The notes beneath the pieces were generated by a model. The model was not told the origin of the DNA. It searched no databases and saw only the letters and a list, made by a program, of their open reading frames with translations. Shown piece by piece: positions 8,375 to 34,557 of a stretch of 64,000 nt of DNA. The position numbers and the translations under genes are program-made. This DNA comes from a virus: IMG/VR virus record IMGVR_UViG_3300046168_000050. One strand, 5' to 3'. Position 1 is the stretch's first letter; the number at the start of each line of letters is the position of its first letter.

Positions 8375-8614
8375 TTAACCCTTGTATATCTTCTGTAGAA
8401 CGTCTTCGAACTCTTCTACTTTGGTTAAACGATTAGGCCAGAGAATATAATCTTTCTCTGGATTCTTTTTTAAATTATTCAAAAGCGGAACAATAGCGTT
8501 ATATAGATTATTTAGTCGCTCTTCATAACCAGAAGCTTCTGAACTTACTTTTTGTACTGCTTCTATTCGATCTTCATCGACCGCAGTAAATCCGAAATCA
8601 AACATATCAGCCAC
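8375..8614 (-). CDS. Small hypothetical protein between gp14 and gp15 (probable start GTG 8614 or ATG 8605)
   Basis: FDFGFTAVDED...PLLNNLKKNPEKDYILWPNR; fills the gap exactly and overlaps the gp14 stop. Confidence 0.8.
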   Translation of the reverse strand: MADMFDFGFTAVDEDRIEAVQKVSSEASGYEERLNNLYNAIVPLLNNLKKNPEKDYILWPNRLTKVEEFEDVLQKIYKG

Positions 8615-10612: not shown

Positions 10613-13600
10613 TTATAGCACTCTTGCTTTTAAATTTGCTGATATCTTTGATGTTAAATCCACTGAGTTTGTAGTAGTAAACTCTACATCGTACTCAGTA
10701 CCATGTATCGCCTGTTTGTACTTTGATGCCGCATTATAATTAATCGTAACACCATCTGATATTGGGCTAGTACCTGAAGTAGCATATGGTGCAATCATCA
10801 AGTCGAGAGTATTAGCACTGTCTTGGCTAAAGTGGTATCCATCAGCTACTGCATCCAACTGAGCTTTATTCATTCTGTTGAATGACTGAGTGCCAAGAGC
10901 TTCTTGAAGAGTTGCGTGCTCATTATTATTGGTACCGTTTACCCAAGTTTCAGATGTTCCGAAACCTGTAGTAGTAGTAGTAAAAGAATTTGCGCCATAA
11001 TTTGATCCGCCAGAAGATTTACTTTTAGTAACATATAATTTCTTTCCGCTGTTTGCCCAACACATTGCAGTGATGGTTGTACTTGATCCACCTAGATCAA
11101 GCCCCGGCTGAAAAGATATATTATTATAAGAAGCTGTGCTTGGATCCCAAGCGGTAGATAAATCATACTCTCTTATATAATAGGTATTTGGAGATCCGTC
11201 ATATAATAGAAGATACATTTTTAAACCATCATCATTAAATAGAATATCTCTTCCAGAGTTACTATTTAAAAACGCAGATGTTACTCCTATATAACTACCT
11301 GTTGTTATATCCCAAGGTGTTGTTAAATTCCAAGAATAGATAGTGGAATTATATCGTAAAATATACACCTTTGAACCATCAGATTTAAAGAAAAGACCAT
11401 ATGATTCATACGTAGGCCCTGCAGAATAATTTTCGGTTGCTGTGTGTGATGCTGTTGATACATCCCATGCAGTACTTAATGCATACTCGCTTATAGTGGC
11501 TGTACTTTGAGGATTTAATACATACATTTTTGTACCATCCGGCTTAAAGAAAAGACCCCAAGGATGTGTAAGCCCAGTCAGTGTATATGAAACATTGTTA
11601 TAAGCACCAGTACTAAGATCGAATGGTGTAGACATATCAAACTGAAACACCTTATCTTCTTGATATCCAGTAATATAAAACTTTGTGCCATCTGAACTAA
11701 CTGCTATACCCTGTTCAGCTTCTTCGCTTGTATCAGCTGTAGTATCGAAATTTTTATTATCATAGGTTTCATTAGCAAGACCGTATCCTACCACACTTCC
11801 GCCATCATTATTATACTGCCAAGTGCCAGAGTTGTTTCGGGCAATCTTTCTTACACCATCTGAACCTTTAGCAACGCTCCAGCTTGTTCGGTTGTCTGTT
11901 GAAACTGCATAGAAGATATCTCCATCGTTTTTGGTTTCGTCAGCTGTCATTGAATTAATATCTAGCCAGGTTGATGAATTGATTTGACCAGAAGAAGAAT
12001 CTGTCAATGCGGGAGAGTATGTAGAGTATGGATGTGTCGCGGAACCAGTTGAAAATTGGTATATTGCTTTTTGATTTGCTGATGTTAAAGATGCACCATT
12101 AGAAGTAGTATAGACAAAAAATCTATTTCCATTATCTGCCCATTGTATTGAATTTGGATTTCTTGCGGTGATGTTATGTGGTGCTCCGGTGGTGCCAGTA
12201 ATTACTGTATCTATATGATGTGTTTGAGATGTTTCTGTCATTGTAGTTATATCAAACGGTGTACTTAAAGTAAAATGTTGTAAATTATCATTAGTTTCAT
12301 TTTCAACTATCATACTCGTTCCATCGGCTGACAGGGCTAAACATTGTAAATAATTACTAGAAAAATTAATATTTGATTGAACACGAGTACCTGCGGTACT
12401 AAGATCCCATGCAGTAGATAAAGGCCAAGAATAAACACTAGGAGTAGTTCCATTTGTGATATATACCATAGTTCCATCATTTTTAAATATTACGCCCGAA
12501 TTTCCAGATGAAAGATTAGTATTTAATGTTTTACTTGACCCACTATAAGTTAAAGTGTCCACCCGAAAAGCATATTGCGGATAATTAGGATCATTATAAA
12601 ATTCTGCCATTGTCGAACTATTGGAATGAACAGTATAGAGTTTCATTCCATCAGTACTCCAAGTGAAACCTGCTATGCGAGTGGAAGGCGCATTAGATAA
12701 ATAGTGACCACCGCTTATAGTATCAGTTAAACTTATAGTACTTAAGTCCCATGCGGTAGATATTGCTCTTTCATATATTTTACCATCATTATGCTGTGTA
12801 TAAAATAACTTAGTTCCATCGGAACTTATAACAAAATCTATGAGAGAAGATATAGAATTAAATGCATCAGTTGTGTGATTTACAACATCAGATAAATTTT
12901 TTCCATAAATTGTCCCATAACTACTGCTAAATCCACTTAGTTCAATACCGGATCCATCAGACTTACCTTGGGCACCAAATAGCTGCCAAGAAGAAATCGC
13001 AGAAGTGTCTGCAAATGCCGTGACTGACTTATATGTTCCTGAAGTACCAGTAATTACAGCTGATCCAGAATTGCCGACTACTTTCTTACCTACGTCTGCA
13101 GCATTAAATGCTGCAGTAGTACCAGTTGTATAGTTGTAAATATAAGTTCCAGACCACCCATATAGTAGAGCCCCATCAGAGCTAAATCTGGTATCTGTGG
13201 TGTGACTTGAATTTCCTTGCCAAGTAAAGGAAGTTCCAGAACTTAAACTTGATAAATCATAACCTGGAGACATAGTAAAATACTTACTAGTTGTACTACC
13301 ATAAGCATCAGAGGCTATTACCAAAGTACCATCAGGGGAAATAGTAACAGCTTGTGTTCGAGATATAAGAGTGCTTGAAGTTGTTCCACTTAGAGATGCA
13401 GTTGTAATATCCCATGCAGTGGTCATAGTAAATTCTCTTAGCACAGCACTTCCAGCAGCACCATCTTGAACTTGATACCCAGTTAACCCGTTAGGTTGAA
13501 TAAACAAACTAGCCATAGTATCCACAAAAATAGCAGAAGAAGCACCATGATAGGATGCGGTACTAAGATCATACGCAGTAGACATCTTCCATTGATAGAT

Positions 13601-14314
13601 TATATCGTTTTGATAGTCTCCAAAATATAAATCATATCCAGAATTAGTTATGTGTAAAGGGCAATAGTGAGCAATAGTACCTACAATTTTACTAGACATA
13701 TCTAATGTATTTGCAGGAGTAGTATTTAGGGTACTTAAATCGTGTGGTGTACTCATAGTATATTGATAAACAGTTTTTGCATATCCGCTTTGAGTTGTGC
13801 CAGATACCATATACACATGATTACCAGTGGGATCAAATTCTACTACCTGCCAAGAACCTCCACTACCTTGACCTGCTATACTTGGAGAAGTAGAATTAAG
13901 ACTAACGGTGCTCGACATTTGATAACCGACTACTATAGCATTACTATTAGTAAAAGTACCATCACCTGTTGCACTAGGGGTTAATGTTGAACTAGCATAG
14001 GTTGAATAGGGTTTCTCATCATAAAAGTCATAATTAGCTCCGTTTGAATTAACATCCCAGGAAGATTTACTGCTAATTCCTATCTGAGGTACTTCTTTGA
14101 ATACTGATACAAAAGGAACCGTGTTGGCTGCAGAGGATAATGATATCGAAGATGTTTGATTTGAGTCAAACGATTGAGTTAGTGTACCTAAAGTACCTTC
14201 TGTGGATATCGTACTAGCCGCTATTTTTCCACTAGCGTTAAATGATAATACCTGACCTTCTGTGCCGTCATCTAAGACGTTTGCTAAGTCACCTAATTTT
14301 CTATTGATACTCAT
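10613..14314 (-). CDS. Large fibre/adhesin with several beta-propeller-like repeat blocks
   Basis: 1233 aa, S/T/G-rich; ~50-aa repeats of F.xDGTKxY...YxLSTAWDxST in three blocks. Confidence 0.8.
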   Translation of the reverse strand: MSINRKLGDLANVLDDGTEGQVLSFNASGKIAASTISTEGTLGTLTQSFDSNQTSSISLSSAANTVPFVSVFKEVPQIGISSKSSWDVNSNGANYDFYDEKPYSTYASSTLTPSATGDGTFTNSNAIVVGYQMSSTVSLNSTSPSIAGQGSGGSWQVVEFDPTGNHVYMVSGTTQSGYAKTVYQYTMSTPHDLSTLNTTPANTLDMSSKIVGTIAHYCPLHITNSGYDLYFGDYQNDIIYQWKMSTAYDLSTASYHGASSAIFVDTMASLFIQPNGLTGYQVQDGAAGSAVLREFTMTTAWDITTASLSGTTSSTLISRTQAVTISPDGTLVIASDAYGSTTSKYFTMSPGYDLSSLSSGTSFTWQGNSSHTTDTRFSSDGALLYGWSGTYIYNYTTGTTAAFNAADVGKKVVGNSGSAVITGTSGTYKSVTAFADTSAISSWQLFGAQGKSDGSGIELSGFSSSYGTIYGKNLSDVVNHTTDAFNSISSLIDFVISSDGTKLFYTQHNDGKIYERAISTAWDLSTISLTDTISGGHYLSNAPSTRIAGFTWSTDGMKLYTVHSNSSTMAEFYNDPNYPQYAFRVDTLTYSGSSKTLNTNLSSGNSGVIFKNDGTMVYITNGTTPSVYSWPLSTAWDLSTAGTRVQSNINFSSNYLQCLALSADGTSMIVENETNDNLQHFTLSTPFDITTMTETSQTHHIDTVITGTTGAPHNITARNPNSIQWADNGNRFFVYTTSNGASLTSANQKAIYQFSTGSATHPYSTYSPALTDSSSGQINSSTWLDINSMTADETKNDGDIFYAVSTDNRTSWSVAKGSDGVRKIARNNSGTWQYNNDGGSVVGYGLANETYDNKNFDTTADTSEEAEQGIAVSSDGTKFYITGYQEDKVFQFDMSTPFDLSTGAYNNVSYTLTGLTHPWGLFFKPDGTKMYVLNPQSTATISEYALSTAWDVSTASHTATENYSAGPTYESYGLFFKSDGSKVYILRYNSTIYSWNLTTPWDITTGSYIGVTSAFLNSNSGRDILFNDDGLKMYLLLYDGSPNTYYIREYDLSTAWDPSTASYNNISFQPGLDLGGSSTTITAMCWANSGKKLYVTKSKSSGGSNYGANSFTTTTTGFGTSETWVNGTNNNEHATLQEALGTQSFNRMNKAQLDAVADGYHFSQDSANTLDLMIAPYATSGTSPISDGVTINYNAASKYKQAIHGTEYDVEFTTTNSVDLTSKISANLKARVL

Positions 14315-14362
14315 TTATTCTACTAAGTCCCAGCTTGTTGTTTCTTCTAATATAGTTTTCAT
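14315..14362 (-). other. 15-codon mini-ORF MKTILEETTSWDLVE (probable deletion remnant or translational coupler)
   Basis: ATG lies 2 nt after the upstream stop and its TAA directly abuts the next ATG; fills the 50-nt gap. Confidence 0.55.
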
Positions 14363-14364
14363 AT

Positions 14365-17300
14365 TTAGCCCTTTACAATCAACTTCGTGGAAGACACTGC
14401 GGTACCAGCAAACACAGAAGGGCTATCAGGTGTGATGCTTAATGTTCCATCGGTTTGAACATAGTAAGCTTTACCCGCCGTTAAGCCTGACTGAGCATCA
14501 TCCACAGAGCCAACGATTTGAATTGTGGCATCCGCAGAATCTAAGTAAGCACCATCTGAAATGCCTATATAATTAGTAGATGTTAGATTAGTTACGGATC
14601 CCCCGGCGTTTTGAAATACAATCGCTGTACCATACTGATTATTGTCATTATTTTCATAAGCAATAACCATCTTTTTATTAAAGGAATCATAAGATACCCA
14701 AGGACCTACAGCAAAATCAGTATCAAAAACAGTAGCGGTACCGAAAGTTATTGAGCTAGCACCAACTGAACCGTTAATCAAAGTACCGGCATTAGAATTG
14801 CTAGCATCAAAAAACGAAATTGTTATTTTTTCAGCATTAGCATCATAAGCAGCATTGTAATTTTTGCCGTTACCGTTATGGAAAACTACCGGAGATGAAA
14901 GGGTAATTGACGTTCCGCTAACTGTGCCAATTCGATAAGTACCTTTACCTGAGTTATTAGCATCACGGTATATAACAACCATCTTCTGTGCATTTGCTGC
15001 GTATACAATCGCATTCTCATAAGTATAATTACTTGTAGTTGCAGCCGAACCAAAAGTTATTGAAGTACCACTTATTGTACCTACTTTAGCGGTACAGTTA
15101 TTGTTATTACCAACATCAAGGAAAAAGACAACAATTTTCTGAGCGTTTTCATCATAAGCAAGTTCTGGCGCCTGTATGTATGAACTTTGAAATACAGCAT
15201 GACTCCCAAAACTAATGGAAGTTCCAGTTACAGTGCCTACAACAGCGCCTCCATAATTATTATTACCAATATCGCGATAAGTAAATACTACTTTTTGGGC
15301 ATTTGCATCGTAAACTACATTGACATCATATGGATTTGGCCCAGTTAACGTAGAAGCAGTTCCAAAACTAATTGAATTTGAACTAACCGTTCCCACAATG
15401 GCTGTTAATTTGGCATTGATGCTGTCTCGATATCCTATGACTACCTTTTGAGCATTTGCATCGTAAGTAGTGCATGTATAATCAGTACTTTGGCCCGACA
15501 GATTGTTGTTAAAAACAACTGGTGTTCCAAAGGTAATTGACGTTCCACTAACTTCACCGACAACAGCCGTTCCACGATAAGAATTTCCTCCGTCGGCATA
15601 GCATATAACTATGCGATTTGCATTAACATCATAGGTTGACGCAAACTGGGAAATCTCTGCACTTTCAAATATAGTAGGGCTACCTATACTTTCCGTAGGA
15701 GTGGTTTCAGAGACTACACTTACAGTACCATCGGAATTAATAACAACTAAATTACCATTTGCTAATGCGCCAGATGCAATTGCATTTAAGGTACTAACGC
15801 TAACAGCAGGAGTTCTTGCTGCAACGTAGTCAGAATCTATCAAATTAATTGTTGCAGCTGAGTCTAATCCTAGAGTTGCCTCTGTTACAATTCCGTGATC
15901 GACAACTTCAATTCTATCGCTGTCTACGATGTTATTTATAAATGTAATTGAGCTACCACTATCTACTGTTGTATAATCATCACCACTTAATAATTTAATG
16001 CCGTTAAGATATACTGCTTCTTTACCTGGAGTATATGTTAAACTAGATACAATATTACCAGATACATTACCGCTTACACCCTTTGTATAGTTAGTAGCGC
16101 TGTAAGGAGTAGCGAATGCTACACCATGCTCAATAACTTCTACAACATCATTAAGAGTCGCTCCAGTGGCTAATACTACTGATGTACCATTAGTTGCAGT
16201 ATAGTCATCAGCTGATAGCTTAGCTCCATTCAAGAATACAGTAATATGACCTGCAGTATAATTAAGAGGAAATGCGGTCTGGCCAGCGGTTGCTGTAAAT
16301 TTAGTTTCAGTAAGAGGATCTTGAGCTGATCTCAAAGGTCCACCAAAGTTAATAATCTCAACATGATCATTTAAAGCTAGTGCATTTGTCATTACTACTG
16401 ATGTACCATCAGTCGCTGTAAAATCTGTACGTTTTACGCCGTTAACAAACACACCAATCTTACCTGCTGTATATGCAGGAAGTGCAGGAGAACTAGAAGC
16501 ATTAAATGTTGTTAACCCAGCTGTTGCAGTGTAGATAGTAGTTGAATAATCTTCTACATAAGAAGCAGCAACATTAACACTGCCGCCGCCGGTAATATTA
16601 ATAGTTTTAGTAGCACCGGACCCAGATGCAGTTACAGCAGATCCAGTAAAGTTAAGAGTAGTAGCTGCTGTTGAGAGGGATGAGCCTTCATCTTGAATTG
16701 TAAGAGCACTACCGCCACCTCCACCTCCGCCAGAATTAGCTTCTCTCAAAGCAACATAAGCAGAATCAACTGTTGAAGTAATAAGAGCAATAGTAGAAGC
16801 AGAATCTGTACCAGCAGTGGTTCTGGCTTGAACATAAGCAGAATCAACTAGAGTAGTAACTCTTGCGTTCGTATAGTAAAGGTTAGAAGAGTCTTCGCTT
16901 AAATCACTTGTAGTAAAACCAGTTAAGTTTCTAGCATTAGTCTGCACAGAGCTGCCCATATTAGCATGCGCAGAACATTGATAATGCAGTACCAAAGGAG
17001 TAGCATCTGTAATAGTAATATCCGTATAAGCGCCGGCGTTACCAGCAGTACCTGATGCTGTTACATTAGTAGTATATGCGGTATTCTTACCTACGTCATA
17101 ATAGAACCTTAAAGGATGACCACTGTTTGTGGCACTAGCTTGGTCAAATCTGTATGTACGACCAGGAGTAAGAGTTAAGAATGGCGCTTCTACTCCATCT
17201 ATAACAAAACCATTACTAGACCCCGTTCCGTTATATCTATGAGCTGCAGTCTTAGACGCTACAGTAACAGTAAATACTTTTGTAGTGGTAGAGTGGGGGG

Positions 17301-18298
17301 AATTAAGATGACTAAATCCTTTTACTGCTCCTAATGCAGCAGAGTCTGCAGTGAGTGTAGTAGCAGTCAAATTACCTTCAAGCATACCGGCAACAAATGT
17401 CTCAGATCCAACTGTCCATTTATCAGTAGTTTCGTTCCAGACAAGAGTTTTATTAGCTGATGTTCCTCTTTCAATCTCAATGCCAGCATCTTGAGAAGGG
17501 GTGCCAGACTCGTCATGGTTAAGAGTGATAATGTTATCGCCAATATGAACTGTATTAGAATTTACTGTAGTTGTAGTTCCTGATACTGTAAGGTTCCCAC
17601 TGACAATCATATTGTTAAATGTAACGTTATCGCTTGTAGCTACTGACTGACCTATAGATATTTGACCAGAAGATACTGTTATCCCAGTACCAGCAGTAAA
17701 ATGAGCTCTTACTTCTGCAGCACTAGGTCCTGTATAAGTTAAGATACCATTACTATTGTTGTAGGCTAAAGATCCATCACCACCCGCATCAGTAACAGAT
17801 ATTAATCCTCTCGCCGCAGCAGAGTCAACAAAGTCAGTCCCTAGTGTTGGAAGAGTTGGAGTATTGGTAAAGTTAGAGTAATTAAGATAATATGAACCAG
17901 CGTTGCCTGCCTAGTGTATCTGCATCGATAGTTAGTGCATTAATAAAGGCTGCATCAACATCTGCCGTAATAACAGATGATACATTTGTGGAGTCAAGTA
18001 TATTAGGTTTATTGCCGAGGTTGTTATAGTTAAGATAGTAAGCGCTATTCTGTCCCCCAAGAGTGTCTGCATCGATAGTTAGTGCATTAATAAAGGCTGC
18101 ATCAACATCTGAAGTGATAATAGCAGAAACTGCGGCAGAATCTGTTCCAGTGGCTGGAGCATTAGCAAGGTTGTTATAGTCTAAATAATAGCTACTATCT
18201 TTACCGCCCAGCTTAATTGCATCTACACCTGAGTCGGTTAGATCACCGGATGCTAGTACCTTAGCTAAAAATCCTGATAAATTACGTGCCTGACTCAT
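14365..18298 (-). CDS. Mosaic tail fibre (~1310 aa), interrupted by one extra base near 17905-17910 (joins ORFs 17882..18298 and 14365..17610)
   Basis: Span 3934 nt is 3n+1. Removing one base gives TLGGNAGSYYLNYSNFTNTPTLPTLGTDFVDSA..., collinear with paralog 26050..28539. Contains DS repeats, a cupredoxin-like domain, three TATAG/LNG/DYTAT modules and VGTVSGTSISFG propeller repeats. Confidence 0.85.
17919..18111. repeat. 46-bp exact direct repeat (17919-17964 and 18066-18111), 147-bp (49-aa) period
   Basis: TCTGCATCGATAGTTAGTGCATTAATAAAGGCTGCATCAACATCTG twice; encodes DVDAAFINALTIDAD. Confidence 0.9.
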
Positions 18299-18327
18299 CT
18301 TGAACTTTCTTTAGTTTTAATTTATAG

Positions 18328-18335
18328 TATTTATA
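18328..18335 (-). promoter_or_regulatory. T4-type late promoter
   Basis: TATAAATA 30 nt upstream of ATG 18298. Confidence 0.8.
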
Positions 18336-18343
18336 AGAGAAGA

Positions 18344-20860: not shown

Positions 20861-20904
20861 TTGTTATGCCTTAATTTAGTTTTAAAAGGTGTGTCGCTCA
20901 TAAA

Positions 20905-25890: not shown

Positions 25891-26048
25891 GTTCTAAGAA
25901 CCGTTGAATCAAACCACAAATCACCCGCACTGGGCCCAGACGGCGCTGTATCTGATACAGTGATAGAGCCACCTCCCCCAGTAGCTCCTGCCGCTAAACC
26001 CTTGGTGACTCTTTTTGCTTTTACTTGAGAATATCTATTGTTTGCCAT
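23337..26048 (-). CDS. Fibre/adhesin with three LamG/ConA-like domains; paralog of 18344..20860
   Basis: Shares the WYS.SLVNTNP...AGTFSPYR block, KGTDASIIDKSQSSNLK and the identical C-terminus GLARYTANFTPPTASLEG; the lectin cores diverge. Confidence 0.85.
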   Translation of the reverse strand: MANNRYSQVKAKRVTKGLAAGATGGGGSITVSDTAPSGPSAGDLWFDSTVLRTYVYYNDGSSSQWVLSNPVGLKGPTGAAGSDGSSVSIYDTIDNLPLTGNTAGDQAYVTAVNRFYIFNGTGWYSISLVNTNPNITSVADASSNTTPFTLSTDGSASVITITATDPEDVPLTYTYSVTSGSLSNGGGTTATVVQGTGSNTNKFTVTPSTTEAYAGTFSLTFTASDGINTATSANSFTLNFITIVTNSKYTTLLATATGTSDNNNIADTSSNNHSITVTGDAYAGTFSPYRHGGYSAYFGTGGSERITIEGTKSTLAGANADFSIGAWIYPTAGNDKWIYSTNVSNNLQAGWHDLYLEGSTKLVWRHSDGSTHRSMMSTNPVSLNEWSYILINRTSNVTYMYINGSLVVQNSDMTYALYTHTNAPSIGIRHFYDNGTTGLDFEGYITDVHVKTAAISSPTTVPTERAVADSDTWLLTAHLPYFGDGSSNNYTVSAYNNVSTKPYTQYDNLEYASADHGGSVYFDRASYNSGGCITVADHNDFTLGTSDWTVKFWVYHNELITSSNNAYGYFSNYYFNTPGGFGLKWMNQHGNKPVLEYMNSGSYAKKIFDFIPSEKIWYYYELTCSSSTVTFKVNGDTIGTQSMPDLGNPNRTLIVGAASNGSSGVENFLGGYIADFQYVIGGTASESSVPTALMSTDSNSALHIKGTDASIIDKSQSSNLKMFGNSTGSTTQVKFAGSKSMYFDGTGDYISIPADDSIFSKDYTVEFWMYPTQDTNLLMPFSKGYGLQFYHQSGNIAAAMSSSNNGTYFYNGNFGSITTNAWSHISLVRDSSASTYKFYINGTLEDTLSSATNIDAGSSNWIIAAFLTSGNYAFEGYIQDVRVTDGLARYTANFTPPTASLEG

Positions 26049-26049
26049 A

Positions 26050-28539
26050 TTAGTTCTCTATCAATACCCATCCGTTAGTTGCATTATAATAAACAAACCC
26101 TATTCCTGCTCTATCAAAGTCAATAATAAAGTCAGAATCACCTGCTTGTATTTTACTGCCATTCCTTGCTACAGTAATATTATTTGTACCAGCGTTACCT
26201 TCACCGTCAATAATTCTTATTTCATCTCCCATTGATGGTCCAGCTGGTAACGTTACTTGAACGGTGCCAGTTGAAACGTCGATGAATAATTTATCACCAG
26301 CCGATGCATTAACATTTGTACTCGAAGCATTCCACACACTAGATTGTAGCATATGATATGAAGCAACATTAATATAATCTGCAGAATCAGCTGCAGATGC
26401 CAATACAATAGAGCTACCATTCGTTGCTGTATAATCCGCATCATCTAATAAGATACCGTTTAAAAATACCTGAGTATTACCAGCGCTATAATCTAAATTT
26501 GTTCCATTTTCATCAGACCCAGTAAAAGTGGTTTGACCTGAGTCAGCAATGAAGCTAAACGTATTTATACCACCTGCAGAAACCTTACCTCCACTAAAGG
26601 ACGTAACCGCAAGTTCGTTTCCTGAATCTGCGCCTGTATTAAGAACTACACTAGTGCCATTTGAAGCTGTATAGTCAACTGTTTCTTTTAGCATAAAGCC
26701 GTTAAGATGTATTAATACATTACCAGGAGAATAGCTTAATGTGGTCCCGTTGACGTCAGCGCCAGTAAATGTAGTCTGTCCTGCGGTCGCAGTGTAGTTA
26801 AATTTATTAATATTAAGAGCCGCAGTAAACGCAGTTCTTGCAGATACATAATCACTGTCGACAGTATTAGCAATGAGAGAAATAGTTTGAGCAGAATCGA
26901 CTGTACCAGATCCTCCTCCACCGCCAGAGTTAGCTTCTCTTAATGCGACATATGCAGAATCAACCGTAGTTGTAATAAGAGCAATAGTTGCAGCAGAATC
27001 TACACCACCTGCCGTAATATCAGATGTAAGCGCTAATGTGCCAGAAGTAGTTGGAAGAGTAATATCAACATTGCCTGAGTAAGCTGAATGAGCGGCTGAC
27101 TTAAGTCTAGTTCTATGCGCATTAGAGGTTTCACAGTAGAAATCTGCATAGGCTACACTTCCCGTGCCGGAGCGAATAGTTATGCCGCCGTCAGCTATGG
27201 TTACACCGCCTGTTGATCCATTTCCATCAATAGTAAGAGCTGAATCATCTAAAATTCCAGCTAGGAAGCTATGATTAACTTTTACTGTAACATCTGAATC
27301 AGATCTAGGCGTTGTATAATAAAGATTAGTAGAACCTTCTGAAAGGGCGTCTGTTGTATGATTTGAAATACTAGAAACCGTACCAGTTACATTTCCAGTA
27401 ACATTGCCGGTCAATGTTCCAACATTAAGATTTGCAAGAGTAAATCCTGTACCTGATCTATTTACAACGTTAGGAGGTAAAGAAGAATCAAAGGCCGAAT
27501 CAATTAGCCCATTAAAAATATAAAATTCACTATTCGTGGCATCTCTAAAGAAACCGGTATGTTCCCTGGTGGCGCCATTATCAGGTGAATAATGGCCTAT
27601 AAATCCAATATCTACTACATCAGATTGCTCATTACTATCTGCAAGATGTAATAGCGGATCAACTACTGTATATACTACAGAGTTAACACTAGTAGTTGTG
27701 CCATTAACAGTTAAATTGTTAGCAGTAACATTAGAGAATGTAACGGAATCAGTGGTACCAACGGCTTGACCAATAGCTATCTCGCCAGAAGCAATAGTAA
27801 CTCCGGTTCCAGCCGTAAAATGTGCCCTTGCTTCCGCCGCGCTGGGGCCTGTATACGTTAAAACTCCTGTAGAGTTATTATAAGCTAGTGATCCATCTCC
27901 ACCAGCATCAGTTACAGAAATAAGTTTTCGTGCTTCTGCCGAATCTACAAAATCGGTGCCGAGGGTAGGTAGTGTAGGCGTGTTAGTAAAGTTATTATAG
28001 TCTAGATGATAGGCGCTGTTATTACCACCTAGCGTATCTGCATCAATAGTTAAAGCATTAATATATGCCGCATTGACTGTAGATGTAATTTGTCCTTGAA
28101 CTGCTGTAGAGTCATGTGTGTCTGCAGCAGCAATAAGTAGATTAACTTGAGCCGAATCAACAAAATCTGTTCCTAGTGTAGGAATAGTAGGAGTGTTCGT
28201 AAAGTTAGCGTAGTTTAAAAGATATCCCGTGGTCAATCCACCAACGGTATCGGCGTCAATGGTTAAAGCATTAATGAATGCAGCATCAACGTCGGTAGAG
28301 ATAACGTTAGAAATAAATGCAGAATCTCTGAAGATATCAGCTTGTCTTGCCTGAATGTAAGCTGAATCAATTAGACCGACAATTGAGGCTGAATCAGTTC
28401 CAGTAACCTCTATACCACCTACAGTAGATCCGTCACCTACATATAGCTTGTTTGTATCGCTGGTAAAGACTGGTTCTCCGACCACTGGTGTGATCGTGAG
28501 TCTATCTGAATCAGTACCTCTTCTAAACTGTAATGGCAT
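26050..28539 (-). CDS. Tail fibre with an Mtd-N-like N-terminus, DS repeats, two ATAGQTTF modules and a C-terminal gp34-like domain
   Basis: MPLQFRRGT...GEPVFTSDTNKLYVGDG; ~21 DS; C-terminal AGDKLFIDVS...VTLP..P..GD.I.IID...NGW. Confidence 0.8.
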   Translation of the reverse strand: MPLQFRRGTDSDRLTITPVVGEPVFTSDTNKLYVGDGSTVGGIEVTGTDSASIVGLIDSAYIQARQADIFRDSAFISNVISTDVDAAFINALTIDADTVGGLTTGYLLNYANFTNTPTIPTLGTDFVDSAQVNLLIAAADTHDSTAVQGQITSTVNAAYINALTIDADTLGGNNSAYHLDYNNFTNTPTLPTLGTDFVDSAEARKLISVTDAGGDGSLAYNNSTGVLTYTGPSAAEARAHFTAGTGVTIASGEIAIGQAVGTTDSVTFSNVTANNLTVNGTTTSVNSVVYTVVDPLLHLADSNEQSDVVDIGFIGHYSPDNGATREHTGFFRDATNSEFYIFNGLIDSAFDSSLPPNVVNRSGTGFTLANLNVGTLTGNVTGNVTGTVSSISNHTTDALSEGSTNLYYTTPRSDSDVTVKVNHSFLAGILDDSALTIDGNGSTGGVTIADGGITIRSGTGSVAYADFYCETSNAHRTRLKSAAHSAYSGNVDITLPTTSGTLALTSDITAGGVDSAATIALITTTVDSAYVALREANSGGGGGSGTVDSAQTISLIANTVDSDYVSARTAFTAALNINKFNYTATAGQTTFTGADVNGTTLSYSPGNVLIHLNGFMLKETVDYTASNGTSVVLNTGADSGNELAVTSFSGGKVSAGGINTFSFIADSGQTTFTGSDENGTNLDYSAGNTQVFLNGILLDDADYTATNGSSIVLASAADSADYINVASYHMLQSSVWNASSTNVNASAGDKLFIDVSTGTVQVTLPAGPSMGDEIRIIDGEGNAGTNNITVARNGSKIQAGDSDFIIDFDRAGIGFVYYNATNGWVLIEN

Positions 28540-28564
28540 TTATTACCTCAATAAATTCTGCTTA

Positions 28565-28572
28565 TATTTATA
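28565..28572 (-). promoter_or_regulatory. T4-type late promoter
   Basis: TATAAATA upstream of ATG 28539, with SD GAGGT. Confidence 0.8.
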
Positions 28573-28575
28573 AGT

Positions 28576-29403
28576 CTATATGGCGCCCATATCTAATGTA
28601 AATCCTACAGGACTCAATATTGTCCCAAAATCAAAAACTTGATTAGCTGTAGAAGCAATCGTTACTCTCTTATTATTAACATCTGTTGTGATATCAATTC
28701 CTGTACCGCCAGCAAATGTAACTGTATCACCACCTGTGGTAGCATCTACTGATAAGTCACCAACTACTGCTACTGTACCGAAGTTATTAACAAAGTCTCC
28801 TGATCTAATTGCAACGTAAGCCGAGTCAACAATAGTAGCAACATAATTTTCTTTAATTAAATTTTGTACAAAGGCGCTATCAACAATTCCCGCTACTTCA
28901 TTTGAATCAACTGGGCCTACTGTATTAGCAGCAATTCCACCAATAAATGCTGAGTCAGGAATAATAGGAGCGTTAGTAAAGTTATTATAGTTAAGATAAT
29001 ATGTACCATCTTGCCCATCTAATGTTCCGGCATTAACATCTAATAAATTTACAAATGATTGATCGACATGGCTATCAATTATACTATTAATAGCGGCAGA
29101 ATCTAATCCCACCGAGCCCCTATTTACAAATGTAAGGGTGCCAGAACCATTAGTAGTTAAAACCTGGTTAGCGGCGCCATCTGTAGCGGGAAGTGAATAG
29201 TTGCCGACAGTGAGATTATCTGTCGTAAGGGTATTAAAATGAGCTGAATCATTACTCTGAAAATGCTGTACCGTATTACCAGATGTCTTATAGTACAAGC
29301 GGCCATCAGCATAGTTGATAGCTACTTCGCCGTACTCGAGGTCCGTATTAAGAGGTATGCGTCCAGCAACACTGGACTTTTTCAGTTTAATGTTAGTCGA
29401 CAT
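28576..29403 (-). CDS. Short fibre/adaptor protein
   Basis: MSTNIKLKKSS...GEVAINYADGRLYYK N-terminal domain; 7 DS; ends FDFGTI...LDMGAI. Confidence 0.75.
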   Translation of the reverse strand: MSTNIKLKKSSVAGRIPLNTDLEYGEVAINYADGRLYYKTSGNTVQHFQSNDSAHFNTLTTDNLTVGNYSLPATDGAANQVLTTNGSGTLTFVNRGSVGLDSAAINSIIDSHVDQSFVNLLDVNAGTLDGQDGTYYLNYNNFTNAPIIPDSAFIGGIAANTVGPVDSNEVAGIVDSAFVQNLIKENYVATIVDSAYVAIRSGDFVNNFGTVAVVGDLSVDATTGGDTVTFAGGTGIDITTDVNNKRVTIASTANQVFDFGTILSPVGFTLDMGAI

Positions 29404-29431
29404 TTTAATCCCTAAAAAGGAGTTTATTTAA

Positions 29432-29459
29432 AGTCGGACAACTAAAAAGCTATCCGACT
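29432..29459 (-). promoter_or_regulatory. Intergenic 12-bp RNA hairpin (terminator or translational control element)
   Basis: Minus strand AGTCGGATAGCT-TTTT-AGTTGTCCGACT; the two non-Watson-Crick pairs are G-U only on the transcribed strand. Confidence 0.65.
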
Positions 29460-29476
29460 ATATTAATATTATATAT

Positions 29477-32400
29477 CTAGTAAGTACCACCATCAATTGT
29501 AGAAAGTGCTACGTCACCATTAGTAAGTGTAAACTGTCTTGTACCTTCACCTGCACTATCAGCGTATGCACCAAAGCTTGCTACACCTTTAGATGTTCTT
29601 GTAGCATTTCTACCAGTAACAGTAATAGTAGAACCCGAACCCGAGGTACTAATACCTTGAGGCCAGTCACCTACAATATTAAGTGTTTCACCTAGTGTTT
29701 GTTGTAAACTGGTACCTGCACCAGGAGCTCCTGTACCCGTGCTACCAGTTCCGAAAGTAATATCATTTGAAGTTACTACACCAGTATTAACTGTAAAGTT
29801 AGTAGAATTAAAGCTAGCTGCACCCTTTTGGCTGGCAGATGCTATAGCAGCGCTAATAGTTAATGCAGTACCGGTCGCCGCAGTAGTAATAGTGTTATGA
29901 GTGGTTTCCCCTTGGATAGTAAACGTTTCGCCAAGAGTTGCAGCCGCTGTACCGGTTTGCCCGGAAAGCGTAATATCATCTGCACTAATAATACCAGAAG
30001 AAGAACTAAAATGTGTGGCATTAAAGGTTGCAATACCTTTTGTAGAACCATCAGCAGCAGCGTCCGTGCCGGCAACTGTAATAATACCACTGCCTGGAGT
30101 GATACTAATACCAGTACCAGCTGTTAAGATATCTTCCATGTCTGAATCGACACGAGCAGTTGTATAATAAAGGTTAGAGAGACCTTCGCTTAAGCTATCA
30201 GTAGTTCTTTGAGCAAACTGAGTATTAAAGTTATCACTCGGACCAACAATGGTATCAGCTGTGATAGTGCCTACTCTAAGATCTGCAAATTGATATGAAG
30301 CAGCTGATACGTTAATTTCTGTATCAGGGTCTGTAGAATCTAAGCCTGGTTGATTTAAATTATCAAAGAGCTGATAAGTTCCGCTAGTGGCGTCTCTTAC
30401 AAGACCAGTGTGTCTTTTTGTGCTACCGCCATCATCTGAATAATGACCTAAGAAACCAATATCAATTGTGTCTGATGTCTCGTTGCCATTAGCAAGTTGG
30501 ATCATAGCATCGCTAACAGCTAATGTAGTTGTATTGATTACCGTGTTAGTACCATGTACTGTTAAGTCACCATCAATAATAACATTACTGGTAAAGTTAG
30601 CACCTGAGAATGTTACAGAGTCAGTAGTACCTACTGCTTGTCCAATTGCAAAGGTACCAGTACCTGATGTATATGTTACACCAGTTCCAGCGGCAAAATG
30701 AGCTCTTACTTCAGCCGGGCTAGGTCCCGTGTAGGTAATAGCGCCAGTTGAGTTGTTATAAGCTAAAGATCCATCACCACCTGCATCAGTAACAGAAATA
30801 GCTTGTCTGGCCGGAGATGTAACTCTTGCATTTGTAAAGTAAAGATTAGTCGAGCCTTCAGCTACGCTGTCGGTATCGAAATCAATACTTCCGCCTAGTG
30901 ATATTGTATTGCCTAAAATCTCAATAGTTGAGTTAGCTAATTCAGCATTACTAATTTCGTTATTAGCAAATGTAACAGAATGGCCAGTAAGATCTAATGT
31001 AGTAGCAAGTTCACTATCGGAAATACCACCAGTCTTAACTGCGACATGACCAGATGCGACTTCAAAGTTATCAGTACTAAATGATGCCGTACCAAGATTA
31101 GAACTTGTTGCCTCTTCAGTAGCAATTGTAACAGTACCAGAAGTTACAGAAGTTGTAATACCTTCTCCACCGGCAATGTCAATTGTTCCACCAAGCGATA
31201 TAGGCGTTGTATTAGCATCATCACCAGTAAATGTTGTAGTTGAATTTACAAGCTTGCTGTTTACAATTGCCCCTGCTAACTGAGTATTTGAAACACCGCC
31301 GGCGGCAATAGTAACTGCGCCTGAAGATACCGCAAAATCAGCTGCAGCAAAACTAGCAATACCTTTTGCACTGGTGCTAGCATCTGTTCCAGATATTGTA
31401 ATAGTATTATTTGAAACTGCTGTAGCAATACCTGTACCACCAGTAAAAGTGAGTTCAGAATCTAGTAGGTTAACATTATCATCGGTACCAGTATCAGCTT
31501 TAATTGTAAGATCAGTAGAAATAGAAGCTGTTGTAGCATTAGTAACTCTACCTTGAGCATCAATAGTAAGTACGGGAATTAACGCTGCAGTACCATATGT
31601 ACCAGCTGTCACAGCGGTATTGTCTAGGTCAAATGTTACCTCGTCAGTGCCTACTGTAGAGGTTAGCCCAGTTCCGCCTGTAAATGTTAATGTGTCTGAT
31701 AACAAGTCCACGGCATTGTTGTTAGTACCATCAGTGATATCTAACGTAGTAGCAATATTAACTGTACTTGCTGCTGTTAAGCGGCCGAAAGTATCTACTG
31801 TGAATGTAGGAATTGCCGTAGTTGAACCATATGATCCAGCTGATACCGCAGTTGCATCTAAGGCATAAGATACTGTATTATTACTAATAGTAGCTGTTAC
31901 ATGACCTGCAGCGCCTGTAAAGTTTAGAGCAGAGTCAAGAAGATTTACTGTATCACTGTCAGCAGTATCGCCACGAATAGTGAGATCAGTTGAAATATTA
32001 AGTGTACCAGCAGCAGTTAAGCGACCTTGTTGATCTACAGTAAACGTTGGAATAGCAGAAGCAGAGCCATAAGAACCTGGAGTTACTGCTGTGTTAGATA
32101 GAGTTACAATTAATTCATCAGCAGCATGAGAGGTTTCGATACCTGTGCCACCAGATAAGGTAAGAGTGTCTCCTAAGTCAACTGCCGTACCAGTACCTGC
32201 ATCAGAAGCAATACCAATAGTACTATTATCAAGTTGACTGTTGCCAATTGAGTTAATAGTAACTTCACCAGTACCTGATACGTCAAAGTCAGCTGATGCA
32301 AACGATGCAACACCAACCGCTGAAGTTGTAGCTAAGTCACCGCTAATAGTTACTGTATTGTTAGTAACAGTAGTTGAAATACCGCTTGTACCCAAGAAGC

Positions 32401-32917
32401 TAAGATCAGAATCAGCGATATTAACTACATCAGTACCAGTATCACCCGCAATGTCAATAGTCTTGGCACCAGCAATAAAGTCAACATATTCTTTTGTGGT
32501 AAGAGAGTTTGTGCCAAAGCCTGATCTATCTTTATATCCAGCTGGAACGTTAACTGCGCCTGTACCGTTGGGGGTTAGGGTAAGAGCAGTGTCAGCAGCT
32601 GTAATGGAGATAGTTGATCCGTCAATGTCAATATTATCAACTTTTAAGTTATCTATTTTACTGTTAGCGTCAACTAAAAGTGCACTCGAGGCTGTAAGTA
32701 CACCTAAAGCATGATCTAGTTTATCAGTAAAATATGAACCGCCAATAACTTCAATATTGGCTGCTACACCTGCCGTTTCAGTTCCTGTGCCGATATATAG
32801 TCTATCACCACCGGATACAACTGAATGGTCAGCATAGCTGTATGCCATTTCTCCGTTTCGTAAAGCCGATGGGGCGCCACTAGTACCCGATCTTTTTATC
32901 TTAATTATAGATGCCAT
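29477..32917 (-). CDS. Long repetitive tail fibre
   Basis: MASIIKIKRSG N-terminal domain; repeats of V(T/S)(P/A)G(S/T)YG...IP.(F/L)T(V/I)D..GR.T.A and G(V/I)ASF....F.V..G.V; ends IDGGTY. Confidence 0.85.
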   Translation of the reverse strand: MASIIKIKRSGTSGAPSALRNGEMAYSYADHSVVSGGDRLYIGTGTETAGVAANIEVIGGSYFTDKLDHALGVLTASSALLVDANSKIDNLKVDNIDIDGSTISITAADTALTLTPNGTGAVNVPAGYKDRSGFGTNSLTTKEYVDFIAGAKTIDIAGDTGTDVVNIADSDLSFLGTSGISTTVTNNTVTISGDLATTSAVGVASFASADFDVSGTGEVTINSIGNSQLDNSTIGIASDAGTGTAVDLGDTLTLSGGTGIETSHAADELIVTLSNTAVTPGSYGSASAIPTFTVDQQGRLTAAGTLNISTDLTIRGDTADSDTVNLLDSALNFTGAAGHVTATISNNTVSYALDATAVSAGSYGSTTAIPTFTVDTFGRLTAASTVNIATTLDITDGTNNNAVDLLSDTLTFTGGTGLTSTVGTDEVTFDLDNTAVTAGTYGTAALIPVLTIDAQGRVTNATTASISTDLTIKADTGTDDNVNLLDSELTFTGGTGIATAVSNNTITISGTDASTSAKGIASFAAADFAVSSGAVTIAAGGVSNTQLAGAIVNSKLVNSTTTFTGDDANTTPISLGGTIDIAGGEGITTSVTSGTVTIATEEATSSNLGTASFSTDNFEVASGHVAVKTGGISDSELATTLDLTGHSVTFANNEISNAELANSTIEILGNTISLGGSIDFDTDSVAEGSTNLYFTNARVTSPARQAISVTDAGGDGSLAYNNSTGAITYTGPSPAEVRAHFAAGTGVTYTSGTGTFAIGQAVGTTDSVTFSGANFTSNVIIDGDLTVHGTNTVINTTTLAVSDAMIQLANGNETSDTIDIGFLGHYSDDGGSTKRHTGLVRDATSGTYQLFDNLNQPGLDSTDPDTEINVSAASYQFADLRVGTITADTIVGPSDNFNTQFAQRTTDSLSEGLSNLYYTTARVDSDMEDILTAGTGISITPGSGIITVAGTDAAADGSTKGIATFNATHFSSSSGIISADDITLSGQTGTAAATLGETFTIQGETTHNTITTAATGTALTISAAIASASQKGAASFNSTNFTVNTGVVTSNDITFGTGSTGTGAPGAGTSLQQTLGETLNIVGDWPQGISTSGSGSTITVTGRNATRTSKGVASFGAYADSAGEGTRQFTLTNGDVALSTIDGGTY

Positions 32918-33225
32918 TAATAAAAGCCCCCGTCTTGACTTATTTCTACATTACCCAGTTCATTTCCTGCTGCCCATTTGTCACTCGCCGAATCATAGAT
33001 AATTAATGAACCATCTGCTAAACTTGTAAAGTCTACATTTAAATTTTCAAACCTAACCTTACTAAAGGATAGGTTCCCTGCGCCATCTGTTGTCATTACA
33101 GATCCCGCTGAGTCTGCATCTACAGTCGGATAACTTAACTCTCCAACTTGCAGCGAACCGCGAAATACTGCAGAGTCCGTGACATCTAAACCGGTTTTTA
33201 TGACAAACTTTTGTTTAATCGCCAT
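32917..33225 (-). CDS. Small fibre adaptor protein
   Basis: MAIKQKFVIKTGL...VMTTDGAGNLSF...QDGGFY; TAATG-coupled to the next gene. Confidence 0.75.
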   Translation of the reverse strand: MAIKQKFVIKTGLDVTDSAVFRGSLQVGELSYPTVDADSAGSVMTTDGAGNLSFSKVRFENLNVDFTSLADGSLIIYDSASDKWAAGNELGNVEISQDGGFY

Positions 33226-33262
33226 ATGCTTAGAGACTCCTATTCATGACAAATATTACCTT

Positions 33263-33270
33263 TATTTATA
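33263..33270 (-). promoter_or_regulatory. T4-type late promoter
   Basis: TATAAATA in the intergenic gap; SD AGGAG downstream. Confidence 0.8.
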
Positions 33271-33281
33271 TGTTTTTTCTT

Positions 33282-34199
33282 TTATGCTTCAATGTTTATT
33301 CTTTTTGCCTTGACTATTGTATTAACGTAATACGGTGTAACAATTAACTCAAATTGCTCATCTTGTATCCGCGCATCAATTATTCCTAAATCAGAGTCAG
33401 TTTGCAGCACGCCATATTCAGTCATATAAACATTAGTATTATCATGTGTAAATAAAACTTCAGAAGAATAATACTTATTGTTATCAGTTTCATGAAGCGA
33501 TATTAAATATTTAAGTGACCTATATTGGTCTGCAGAAAAAGTATCAACTACATAGTCAGCAGTAGTTAATCCTGGTTCTGGCATATCTGCATCTAATTCA
33601 AATAAAGACGCTCCTTTAGCCCTCTCCAAAACATATGCCGAATCAAAAAAGTTTTCTAATCCTGGCGCCGTCTGAGTAGAATCATAAATATAATTATCAC
33701 CTCGAATCCAGTCATTAATTGTGTCAATAGTTCTGGCTGAATCAAATTTAGATAAAGGAACTAATTGGCTTGAATCCACTGGCTGGCCAGGAACAGGTGC
33801 GGGCCCTACAGAAAGTGTTCCACCGCCTCCATCTGCTAGGACGGTTCCTCCTAAGAAGATTGTCTCACCAGCTAGAAATAATTCTTTAAATCTTTTTGTA
33901 GGAGAACCTAAATTGTAAGCAATGTCAGTATCAGGTACCATATTACCGGTAACAATAGTACCACCAGAATCTACATTATCAGTGATTCCTGACAAAACAA
34001 TATTTGTAGGCTTATTAGTGAGGTTTTCATAGTTTCGATAAAACCCCGGAGAATCTCCACCTAAGGTAGCCGCGTCATAAAAAACCTGATCAACAGATTT
34101 TATAGGAGTACCAACCATCACCTTTTTTACAATGGTAGTGCTTTCAGATACTCTTATCTCGGGGTTTTGATTTACCTTTACTACATATTTGTCAGACAT
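33282..34199 (-). CDS. Virion structural/fibre adaptor protein
   Basis: YNLGSPTKRFKELFL fibre motif; C-terminal DTF...YRSLKY...SSEV...MTEYG domain. Confidence 0.7.
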   Translation of the reverse strand: MSDKYVVKVNQNPEIRVSESTTIVKKVMVGTPIKSVDQVFYDAATLGGDSPGFYRNYENLTNKPTNIVLSGITDNVDSGGTIVTGNMVPDTDIAYNLGSPTKRFKELFLAGETIFLGGTVLADGGGGTLSVGPAPVPGQPVDSSQLVPLSKFDSARTIDTINDWIRGDNYIYDSTQTAPGLENFFDSAYVLERAKGASLFELDADMPEPGLTTADYVVDTFSADQYRSLKYLISLHETDNNKYYSSEVLFTHDNTNVYMTEYGVLQTDSDLGIIDARIQDEQFELIVTPYYVNTIVKAKRINIEA

Positions 34200-34203
34200 T
34201 CAC

Positions 34204-34557
34204 TCACCTAGTTACAGAAGGAGTCACTTGGGCTCTTCCTTCTAATATCCGCTCGATAATTGTATTATTGTCTGAATCCTGATATTGTAGCTCCACATCA
34301 TAAACATAGCGACCGGCTTTCAATGCATCTGTTTGAGTGTTTGAAAGACTTAAAGTAATTTTGCCATCAGTAGCAGGGGTAGCTACAATACCTGTAAAGT
34401 CTACCGTGTCTGCACTATCACTGTTATAGGATTTTTTGAGTTTAGCGGATACTGTATGATTAGTCAGGTCCTTTGTCGAACCATCTAATGCAACTAGATG
34501 TACTTCTATTGCTACATCGGCCCCTTGGTCGATGGTAAATTCTTCATACTGGGCCAT
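34204..34557 (-). CDS. Small Ig-like (BppU-like) virion protein typical of T4-like fibre clusters
   Basis: IDQGAD...DLTNHT...GKITLSL...LKAGRYVYDVEL...RILEG...VTPSVT. Confidence 0.75.
   Translation of the reverse strand: MAQYEEFTIDQGADVAIEVHLVALDGSTKDLTNHTVSAKLKKSYNSDSADTVDFTGIVATPATDGKITLSLSNTQTDALKAGRYVYDVELQYQDSDNNTIIERILEGRAQVTPSVTR

Follow-up and report, generated by a model that had tools for sequence, protein, structure and literature searches.

The lateral fibres of phage DT57C are attached by a ring of twelve LtfC subunits, which take up N-terminal beta-strands of LtfA through sheet augmentation; LtfB presumably hangs on LtfA, and the three proteins come from neighbouring genes, as gp109 (LtfC), gp108 (LtfA) and gp107 (LtfB) (PMC10713586). 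In the branched complex of CBA120, XD2 and XD3 of TSP4 bind TSP2 and TSP1, XD1 is considered a spacer, and the head of TSP1 still binds XD3 without its 13 N-terminal residues (PMC8825819). The T4 long tail fibre is a series of trimeric segments (gp34, gp35, gp36 and gp37) held together by non-covalent joints and encoded by consecutive genes in proximal-to-distal order (PMC5537660), and a different attachment, via loops of a triplex protein, has been described for the fibres of Pakpunavirus P7-1 (PMC13338283). Here we compare with these systems positions 10613-34557 of a 64,000-nucleotide (nt) stretch of viral DNA (IMG/VR record IMGVR_UViG_3300046168_000050; the whole stretch is called the window), which form a host-recognition (tail-fibre) gene cluster, flanked on one side by baseplate wedge genes and on the other by gp13 and gp14 of the neck (Table 1). 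An earlier reading of the DNA, the original prediction, had proposed that consecutive fibre genes of this cluster are linked by a docking code of modules and cognate terminal peptides, that gene order mirrors assembly order and that proteins with several modules are branch points. We find that the joint elements in the cluster are an LtfC/p132-like collar, a connector, an adaptor with a GG-x-Y/F end, Mtd_N-like anchors, and gp17-N/XD2-XD3-like modules followed by XD1. That the cluster proteins are put together from this small set of elements, in a serial and probably branched assembly, is our best reading, and one for which we put the chances at about even.

As in the lateral tail fibre attachment of T5 and DT57C, the cassette is headed by an LtfC/p132 homologue (E 6e-8, template-modelling (TM) score 0.84). 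The 117-amino-acid (aa) product of this collar gene matches PHROG 1084 (E 1e-23) and PHROG 3304 (E 1.2e-18), and the profile of its family (A8) finds T5 p132 (7QG9_R, E 6.2e-8) and DT57C LtfC (8HQZ_Q, E 4.7e-7) in the PDB, with a similarity that spans the whole single domain including the C-terminal strand. Its structural model, with a predicted local distance difference test score (pLDDT) of 93, is a compact beta-sandwich superposable on LtfC, and Foldseek matches it to DT57C LtfC (8HQZ_T, TMq 0.84, E 8e-8) and T5 7QG9 (TMq 0.77). The protein is a clear homologue of T5 p132 and DT57C LtfC, and by analogy it might form a dodecameric ring and capture fibre strands here as well, to which one indirect hint is given by the product of the next gene. 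The gene after an LtfC-like gene tends to encode a strand-like N-terminus, often of (I/L)V(K/R)(K/R)(I/V) type, which is a further likeness to T5 and DT57C; in the window, an IVKK-type strand occupies residues 22-30 of the 305-aa connector. Moreover, consecutive parts come from consecutive genes in both cases, and the fibres of DT57C are branched, with LtfB on LtfA. DT57C is a direct precedent for a small module that captures a short terminal segment and for consecutive genes that encode consecutive parts. Unlike T5 and DT57C, the virion here has a contractile, T4-like tail, a small adaptor (in the window together with the 305-aa connector) sits between collar and fibre, and the fibre anchor is Mtd_N-like, with no T5 Ltf N-terminus.

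The pair type in which a protein ending in GG-x-Y/F is followed by one starting with IKIKRS or IKLKKS had been noticed twice in the cluster, from the adaptor (QDGGFY) to the 1146-aa fibre 1 and from fibre 1 (IDGGTY) to the 275-aa fibre 2. Both occurrences were recovered, and a pattern scan of IMG/VR with an anchor alignment confirmed the pair in at least 554 loci, 80 of which were fetched. In the fetched loci, the order of LtfC-like gene, adaptor and fibre was kept in 80 of 80, a [GCAS]G-x-[YF] end closed all 77 upstream small open reading frames (ORFs), and a GG-x-Y/F-type end closed 71 of 72 complete first fibres, the lengths of which vary from 306 to 1657 aa. The gene after fibre 1 has an IKLKKS-type start in 51 of 68 cases, and in the control the same end was found in 1 of 593 other ORFs of these loci. 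The GG-x-Y/F to IKIKRS/IKLKKS pair is thus far from chance. The same order is present in cultured phages: a search with the N-terminal third of fibre 1 found related proteins in Melnitz, Mosig, P-HM1, P-SSM2 and DC31 (a Limnohabitans phage), and in all five a protein of ~115 aa is followed by a small protein (73-92 aa, ending in (N/S/A)G-x-F/Y) and by a MASIIKIKRS-like fibre ending in (I/L)DGG-x-F/Y. A MSTxIKLKKS-like fibre comes next in Melnitz, Mosig and DC31; P-HM1 and P-SSM2 match up to the first fibre. Matched ends across very distant phages, with variable middles, support the reading of these gene borders as junctions.

The adaptor itself had just six near relatives in a word-indexed protein search, and its family became apparent only via genomic context; a hidden Markov model (HMM) built from 60 adaptors of other loci then matched aa 37-102 of the 102-aa protein with E 2.5e-12. 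The adaptor gene shares 1 nt with the ATG of the fibre 1 gene in the window, and in the fetched loci the gap between the two genes ranges from -1 to about 30 nt, with one of 72. Fibre 1 and fibre 2 lie farther apart, in most cases by 42-106 nt.

Several features of the ending show where the constraint acts. The pentapeptide is nearly always the extreme C-terminus, and when the final 70 residues of fibre 1 are compared between loci, three or more mutually unrelated sequence classes emerge, all with the same terminal pentapeptide. The Gly codons of the motif are mostly GGT or GGC and vary synonymously; therefore the motif is no ribosome-binding site, and the constraint on the GG-x-Y/F end acts at the protein level. 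In-frame fusion of a GG-x-Y/F end with an IKRS start was found in none of the L-numbered loci, that is, the related IMG/VR loci fetched for comparison (about 180 in all), and the one regular-expression match, in L003, was an unrelated motif. In a second sample of 15 loci, centred on the collar gene and chosen without the IKRS criterion, nine carry adaptor and fibre, and in the other six a long fibre comes straight after the collar gene. In three of these six (L101, L102 and L103), the long fibre has the adaptor core at its own N-terminus, with neither a GG-x-Y/F end nor an IKRS start. Hence GG-x-Y/F and IKRS appear and vanish together in these natural adaptor-fibre fusions, as a non-covalent, detachable joint predicts.

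The sole exception to the rule on the end of fibre 1 is L057:877-7240, where the IKRS fibre (936 aa) ends otherwise. It is followed by a 1075-aa ORF ending in DGGTY and then by the IKLKKS fibre, and fibre 1 appears to be split or frameshifted in this locus.

Fibre 1 and fibre 2 have homologous anchors, the similarity covering some 40 residues (hhalign of A3 against A5: 95.7%, E 9.7e-9). The two starts therefore represent one joint type with two subtypes and do not amount to a rich code. PDB searches with the adaptor (A2), the fibre 1 anchor (A3) and the fibre 2 anchor (A5) gave nothing meaningful, and Pfam likewise none. As in Mtd of Bordetella phage BPP-1, the N-terminus of fibre 3, the next gene in order of transcription, is a true Mtd_N domain, so that the suspected Mtd-N-like nature of the MPLQFRRGT start was correct (Pfam Mtd_N 37.3 bits against a cut-off of 26.3, E 2.5e-9; structures of Mtd found with the family profile A6 at E 2.4e-21). 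An in-register alignment with Mtd_N is also obtained for the IKIKRS and IKLKKS anchors; this relation, unlike that of fibre 3, is statistically weak (hhalign E 3-5e-3, probability 7-11%; no Pfam match), and the bodies behind the anchors are unrelated to that of Mtd. The border between fibre 2 and fibre 3, at which a DFG/DMG end had been paired with the QFRRGT start, is not supported as a recurrent junction, for the pair does not recur outside close relatives and the C-termini before Mtd_N-type genes are diverse.

A second recurrent junction lies upstream, between the connector and the adaptor. The C-terminal domain of the 305-aa connector (residues 196-305) has its TEYG motif at aa 260, and the adaptor gene that follows (32917-33225) starts with MAIKQKFVIKTGL. 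Ten distinct genes with a start of the form M-A-...-F-x-VK-x-G-L were found among the about 180 loci, eight of them directly after a C-terminus with a TEYG domain, which upholds the first pair of the original prediction as a recurrent one. The flanks of these pairs differ widely: the upstream bodies are connectors of 305-309 aa, IKLKKS fibres of 157 and 529 aa and fibres of 1012-1060 aa, the downstream bodies are adaptors of 102 aa and fibres of 750-974 aa, and the pair occurs in at least five different gene contexts. The TEYG domain sits, by jackhmmer, at the C-termini of many unrelated fibres, and other TEYG-ending proteins precede genes with different starts. It matches PHROG 967, "baseplate wedge tail fibre connector", with E 6.3e-11, and Pfam T4_gp9_10_C with 16.7 bits, under the cut-off of 25; four of 20 homologues also match that family (best E 1e-4). 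By these matches the domain is probably like the C-terminal domain of gp9/gp10. A PDB sequence search with the domain (A9) or with the 305-aa protein gave no meaningful match, and Pfam likewise gave nothing above cut-off.

The third kind of element is found in fibre 3 and in the gene at 14365-18298. The counts of ATAGQTTF modules given earlier, two and three, were both matched by jackhmmer (E 1e-16 to 1e-31). The domain at the end of fibre 3 had been called gp34-like; it is instead XD1, a nine-stranded beta-sandwich of about 95 aa known from T4 gp9, T4 gp10 and CBA120 TSP4. In a model of residues 575-829 of this 829-aa protein (pLDDT 86), the last domain superposes on XD1 of CBA120 TSP4 (residues 79-177) with Z 14.6 and a root-mean-square deviation (rmsd) of 2.0 over 97 aa at 27% identity, on T4 gp9 with Z 12.4 and on residues 48-148 of T4 gp10 with Z 11.5, and phmmer matches it to 7REJ with E 2e-6. 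The module fold is similar (Z 6-9) to the N-terminal anchors of podophage fibres (T7 gp17 residues 5-76, P-SCSP1u, LME-1 and Kp9). The module profile (A7) matches two tandem domains of the Klebsiella K1 depolymerase 9K4A (113-172 and 188-245; E 5.9e-10), the fibre of cyanophage P-SCSP1u, the N-terminus of the Kp7 tail adaptor (residues 9-74, E 6e-4) and, marginally, residues 203-249 of CBA120 TSP4, within XD2 (E 7e-3), and Pfam Phage_T7_tail (PF03906) matches 5 of 26 module copies, with a best E of 4.9e-5. These similarity results, each moderate, are consistent with beta-sandwiches of the T7 gp17-N or T4 gp10 XD2-XD3 kind, and the modules would then be no new socket type and would belong with the gp10-like complexes that the original prediction had cited as a separate precedent. 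The module was also considered as the N-terminal anchor of pelagiphage podovirus fibres, and this was rejected: the strong matches are internal (HTVC109P aa 422-520, HTVC168P aa 467-661), and the N-terminal module match in these fibres is weak.

The locus thus resembles the gp10-like branched complexes (T4 gp10 with gp11 and gp12, CBA120 TSP4/TSP2, G7C gp66 and Klebsiella depolymerase pairs) in its XD1 (27% identity and Z 14.6 to TSP4), in its tandem beta-sandwich modules of ~70 aa, the profile of which matches the tandem domains of the K1 depolymerase and marginally XD2 of TSP4, and in having many receptor-binding proteins encoded in a row. In contrast to these complexes, where the order is an N-terminal XD1-XD2-XD3, the modules here are C-terminal or internal in long fibres in the order module-module-XD1, and up to three of them are present per protein. 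The putative partners here are long fibres with lectin or repeat tips; the known partners are tailspikes. With the T4 long tail fibre, the proposed assembly has in common the serial joints between segments from consecutive genes. The joints of T4 show no sequence similarity to those of the window, where moreover no hinge protein is evident and the motifs at the joints keep a stereotyped form in phages by the hundred.

In the original prediction, 14365-18298 was treated as one gene that starts with MSQARNL and carries three modules. The start and the modules are there; a single open frame is not, since a 1-nt insertion (GGC-A-GGC, at about 17906-17912) breaks the gene into 17882-18298 and 14365-17610. 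The insertion lies in the third copy of a tandem repeat, TLGG-x-N-x-x-YYLNY (window positions 17840-17960), and a close relative, L099, has an intact gene of 1143 aa that agrees with it in its first 106 residues. A sequencing error, a real mutation or a programmed shift may equally lie behind the frame break near 17909. The C-terminal part (14365-15800) has 7-8 repeats of about 48 aa (Y-D-A-N-A-Q-K-V-V...G-T-S-I-T-F-G) and is propeller-like in look; therefore this module-bearing protein also has a tip of its own.

Domain identities, the conservation of the junctions and selection on the protein are shown by these data; contacts, specificity, assembly order, branching and the site on the virion are inferred from them. 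In the assembly that we favour, each protein would be held on the virion by its conserved N-terminal segment, docked on a C-terminal element encoded by the gene before it. Assembly would thus run from collar to 305-aa connector, 102-aa adaptor, 1146-aa fibre and 275-aa fibre, and perhaps onward, and the two-module protein 26050-28539 and the three-module protein 14365-18298 would be hubs for fibres with lectin or repeat tips, holding them as T4 gp10, CBA120 TSP4/TSP2 and G7C gp66 hold their partners. Five modules compare with about seven fibre-like proteins encoded downstream that have no obvious anchor of their own, a count that fits hubs and is suggestive only. Of the original docking interpretation, what remains is the conserved matching of ends and starts, the swapped bodies and the membership of the modules in docking families, whereas the novelty of the modules, the DFG/DMG pair and a rich code find no support.

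Several observations weigh against such an assembly. The homology between the anchors of fibre 1 and fibre 2 means that the assembly order would rest on subtle differences. The DGGTY end is kept in cyanophage-type cassettes whose next gene encodes a 59-74-aa protein and no IKLKKS fibre; because the end persists there with no adjoining IKLKKS fibre, GG-x-Y/F may be a structural cap and no socket. In the window, the candidate hub gene with three modules carries a frameshift. The module fold matches are moderate and the XD2 sequence match is marginal, and T7 uses the gp17-N fold to anchor the fibre itself, not as a platform for a partner. In T5, the LtfC-type ring surrounds the tip of a non-contractile tail, whereas the tail of the virion here is contractile. 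Finally, the order is permuted in L071, where an F-x-VK-x-GL fibre precedes the adaptor and the LtfC-like gene stands behind fibre 2, adjoining gp13; gene order is therefore not always a mirror of the proposed assembly order, and the claim that it is one fails in at least this locus.

Some of these points would also be expected if the fibres were independent of each other, each with its own Mtd_N-like N-terminus on a baseplate or neck site and with GG-x-Y/F as a trimer cap or folding element at its free tip, an explanation that we consider unlikely and that nevertheless survives better than the others. Its companion claim, that the gp17-N-like modules and XD1 are shaft or spacer and that gene order is inherited synteny, seems to us similarly unlikely. 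The persistence of the DGGTY end with no IKLKKS fibre behind it, the homology of the two anchors, the moderate module matches and the role of the gp17-N fold in T7 all speak for independence, and the C-terminal core of the adaptor and one C-terminal class of fibre 1 look related by eye, so that the ending may be a feature of a domain. XD1, too, is regarded as a spacer in CBA120 (PMC8825819). Yet the pentapeptide ends at least three unrelated C-terminal classes and vanishes together with the IKRS start in the natural adaptor-fibre fusions. Moreover, about ten fibre proteins would need separate sites on the virion, and the adaptor, at 68-144 aa, is too small for a receptor-binding fibre, yet is universal and tightly coupled to fibre 1.

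The ends and starts of genes could instead be kept mainly as homology for the exchange of cassettes between co-infecting phages, with no contact between the proteins. Identical N-termini do occur on different bodies, MANNRYSQVK on three (the lectin fibre of the window, a protein rich in glycine in L008 and another body again in L099) and MSQARNL on two, and close relatives differ strongly in fibre gene content. However, conservation is at the level of amino acids, with synonymous codons, the 50-60% identity of the anchors is too divergent for family-wide homology of DNA, and mosaicism at anchor boundaries is expected of structural anchors as well, so that we regard recombination linkers as quite improbable. 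It is barely credible that the GG codons near the stop are a Shine-Dalgarno site for the next gene, because, even if most loci have the stop codon of the adaptor overlapping the start of fibre 1 or no more than about 20 nt from it, this is contradicted by the codon counts (the Gly codons being freely variable), by the wider gap between fibre 1 and fibre 2 and by the conservation of the flanking D/E and the final Y/F as residues.

With the serial and probably branched assembly as our preferred reading, the site on the virion can be considered from the neighbourhood of the cluster. The minus strand carries all genes between 8.6 and 61 kb of the window, baseplate wedge proteins are encoded upstream of 35 kb, and most large ORFs in 10.6-34.6 kb are labelled tail fibre protein by PHROGs. 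This region fills the slot of T4 genes 9-12 and wac. The top match of the neck proteins is phage C48C1, at just 48% identity, followed by Methylophilales phage Melnitz (44%) and cyanophages and, lower in the list, Pelagibacter phage HTVC008M (39%); a megablast of the window against phages gave no match. From the neck and baseplate matches, the window is therefore assigned to a marine T4-like myophage that is uncultured. Attachment at the collar or neck, and not at the baseplate, is possible for the fibres, because the end of the cassette directly upstream of gp13/gp14 is the position of fibritin (wac) in T4.

Such an end directly upstream of gp13/gp14 was seen for the LtfC-headed cassette in L021, L031, L044, L049, L053, L055, L059, L061 and L071-L077. 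A second gp9/gp10-like connector of 319 aa (48389-49348; PHROG 677 and 967) adjoins the baseplate wedge genes upstream of the fibre cluster. The possibility that L001 and L002 carry the cassette on a different phage backbone was ruled out, their upstream genes matching the baseplate genes of the window.

Table 1. Genes of the fibre cluster and the adjoining neck genes, in window coordinates
Position	Strand	Feature	Evidence or detail
8607-9482	-	Neck protein gp14	Pfam and PHROGs
9486-10238	-	Neck protein gp13	Pfam and PHROGs
10613-14314	-	1233-aa fibre-like protein, start MSINRKLGDLA...	No family match
14365-18298	-	Frameshifted fibre gene, candidate second hub, MSQARNL anchor	Modules 16339-16545, 16123-16314 and 15892-16113; PHROG 30742, E 5e-58
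18344-20860	-	838-aa lectin fibre, 44% identical over 862 aa to its paralogue 23337-26048	
22772-23332	-	186-aa protein, AINFPDSP-type N-terminus	N-terminus in common with 18344-20860
23337-26048	-	903-aa fibre, ConA-like lectin (Laminin_G_3) domains, start MANNRYSQVK	Pfam, E 1.4e-36
26050-28539	-	829-aa fibre 3, candidate hub	Mtd_N anchor 28423-28530, shaft, modules 26590-26811 and 26353-26568, XD1 26053-26334
28576-29403	-	275-aa fibre 2, start MSTNIKLKKS, end FDFG...LDMGAI	PHROG tail-fibre N-terminal matches
29477-32917	-	1146-aa fibre 1, start MASIIKIKRS, anchor of about 40 aa (DNA about 32789-32917), end IDGGTY (29480-29497)	PHROG 15769, E 2e-32
32917-33225	-	102-aa small adaptor, F-x-VK-x-GL start, conserved C-terminal core aa 37-102, end QDGGFY	HMM, alignment A2
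33282-34199	-	305-aa connector, IVKK-type N-terminal strand, C-terminal TEYG domain (aa 196-305, DNA 33285-33614)	PHROG 967
34204-34557	-	117-aa LtfC/p132-like collar protein, first gene of the conserved cassette	PHROG, profile and fold

All termini quoted in the original prediction are present in minus-strand ORFs, with the reservation that the gene starting with MATKNFNL lies outside the cluster range (at 780, running off the left end of the window). The putative propeller protein of 10613-14314, which had been counted among the propeller adhesins, showed no internal repeats by BLAST, no module by jackhmmer and no usable match in the ESM Atlas. The two lectin paralogues, 18344-20860 and 23337-26048, have three Laminin_G_3 stretches each and have an N-terminus in common with the 186-aa gene at 22772-23332; the AINFPDSP-type N-terminus of that gene is also found in L008, L019 and L100. 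A repeat of ~45 aa (D-S-A-x-V...V-D-x-A-F-I-N-A...) recurs in the shafts of 17882-18298, 26050-28539, 28576-29403 and 33282-34199, with copies 40-45% identical.

Further ends and starts were seen side by side in relatives. Downstream of fibre 2, among L023, L028, L030, L034, L040, L051, L052 and L062-L064, fibres ending in YSIIFGF precede MARQLVEKY starts, LFWSEAQA ends precede Mtd_N-type genes, and fibres ending in KTLYGAGS precede genes with an N-F-P-x-N-P-S start. Fibres with a hydrophobic A-x-A-M-A-I-(A/V)-(L/F)-G(G) tail were found at L099:5001-8793, L105:3792-7307, L102:798-6554 and L013:10919-11650 and are followed by a protein of ~106-119 aa or directly by gp13. A chaperone or tip pair is conceivable here, as is contact with the neck.

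The supposed new docking code is mostly a new arrangement of known systems, namely the LtfC collar, gp10-like branching platforms and anchors of Mtd_N type. Two things seem not to have been described before, the stereotyped joint at a C-terminal GG-x-Y/F and the small grammar of junction types that recur, and our literature search found no description of the GG-x-Y/F joint or of an LtfC-headed cassette in T4-like phages. We entertain as a tentative and rather doubtful extension that a small combinatorial grammar of orthogonal junctions determines how at least ten fibre proteins are ordered and branched in a virion-borne tree in aquatic T4-like myophages; equally tentative candidates for its terms are the LtfC-like collar with the IVKK strand, TEYG with F-x-VK-x-GL, GG-x-Y/F with IKIKRS/IKLKKS, and XD2/3-like platforms with other anchors.

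In the abundant marine and freshwater myophages infecting cyanobacteria, SAR11 and methylophiles, host range is set by fibre clusters that are nearly all unannotated. If the proposed assembly is true, fibre architecture and exchangeable tips would be readable from gene ends in the genomes of uncultured phages and in metagenomes, and bounds could be set to the receptor-binding parts that are exchanged. Three attachment systems that have been studied separately, the T5 LtfC collar, T4 gp10-type platforms and Mtd_N anchors, are linked in this one gene cluster. For swaps of fibre tips in cultured phages such as Melnitz, Mosig or P-SSM2, the joints would moreover mark defined sites at which to splice.

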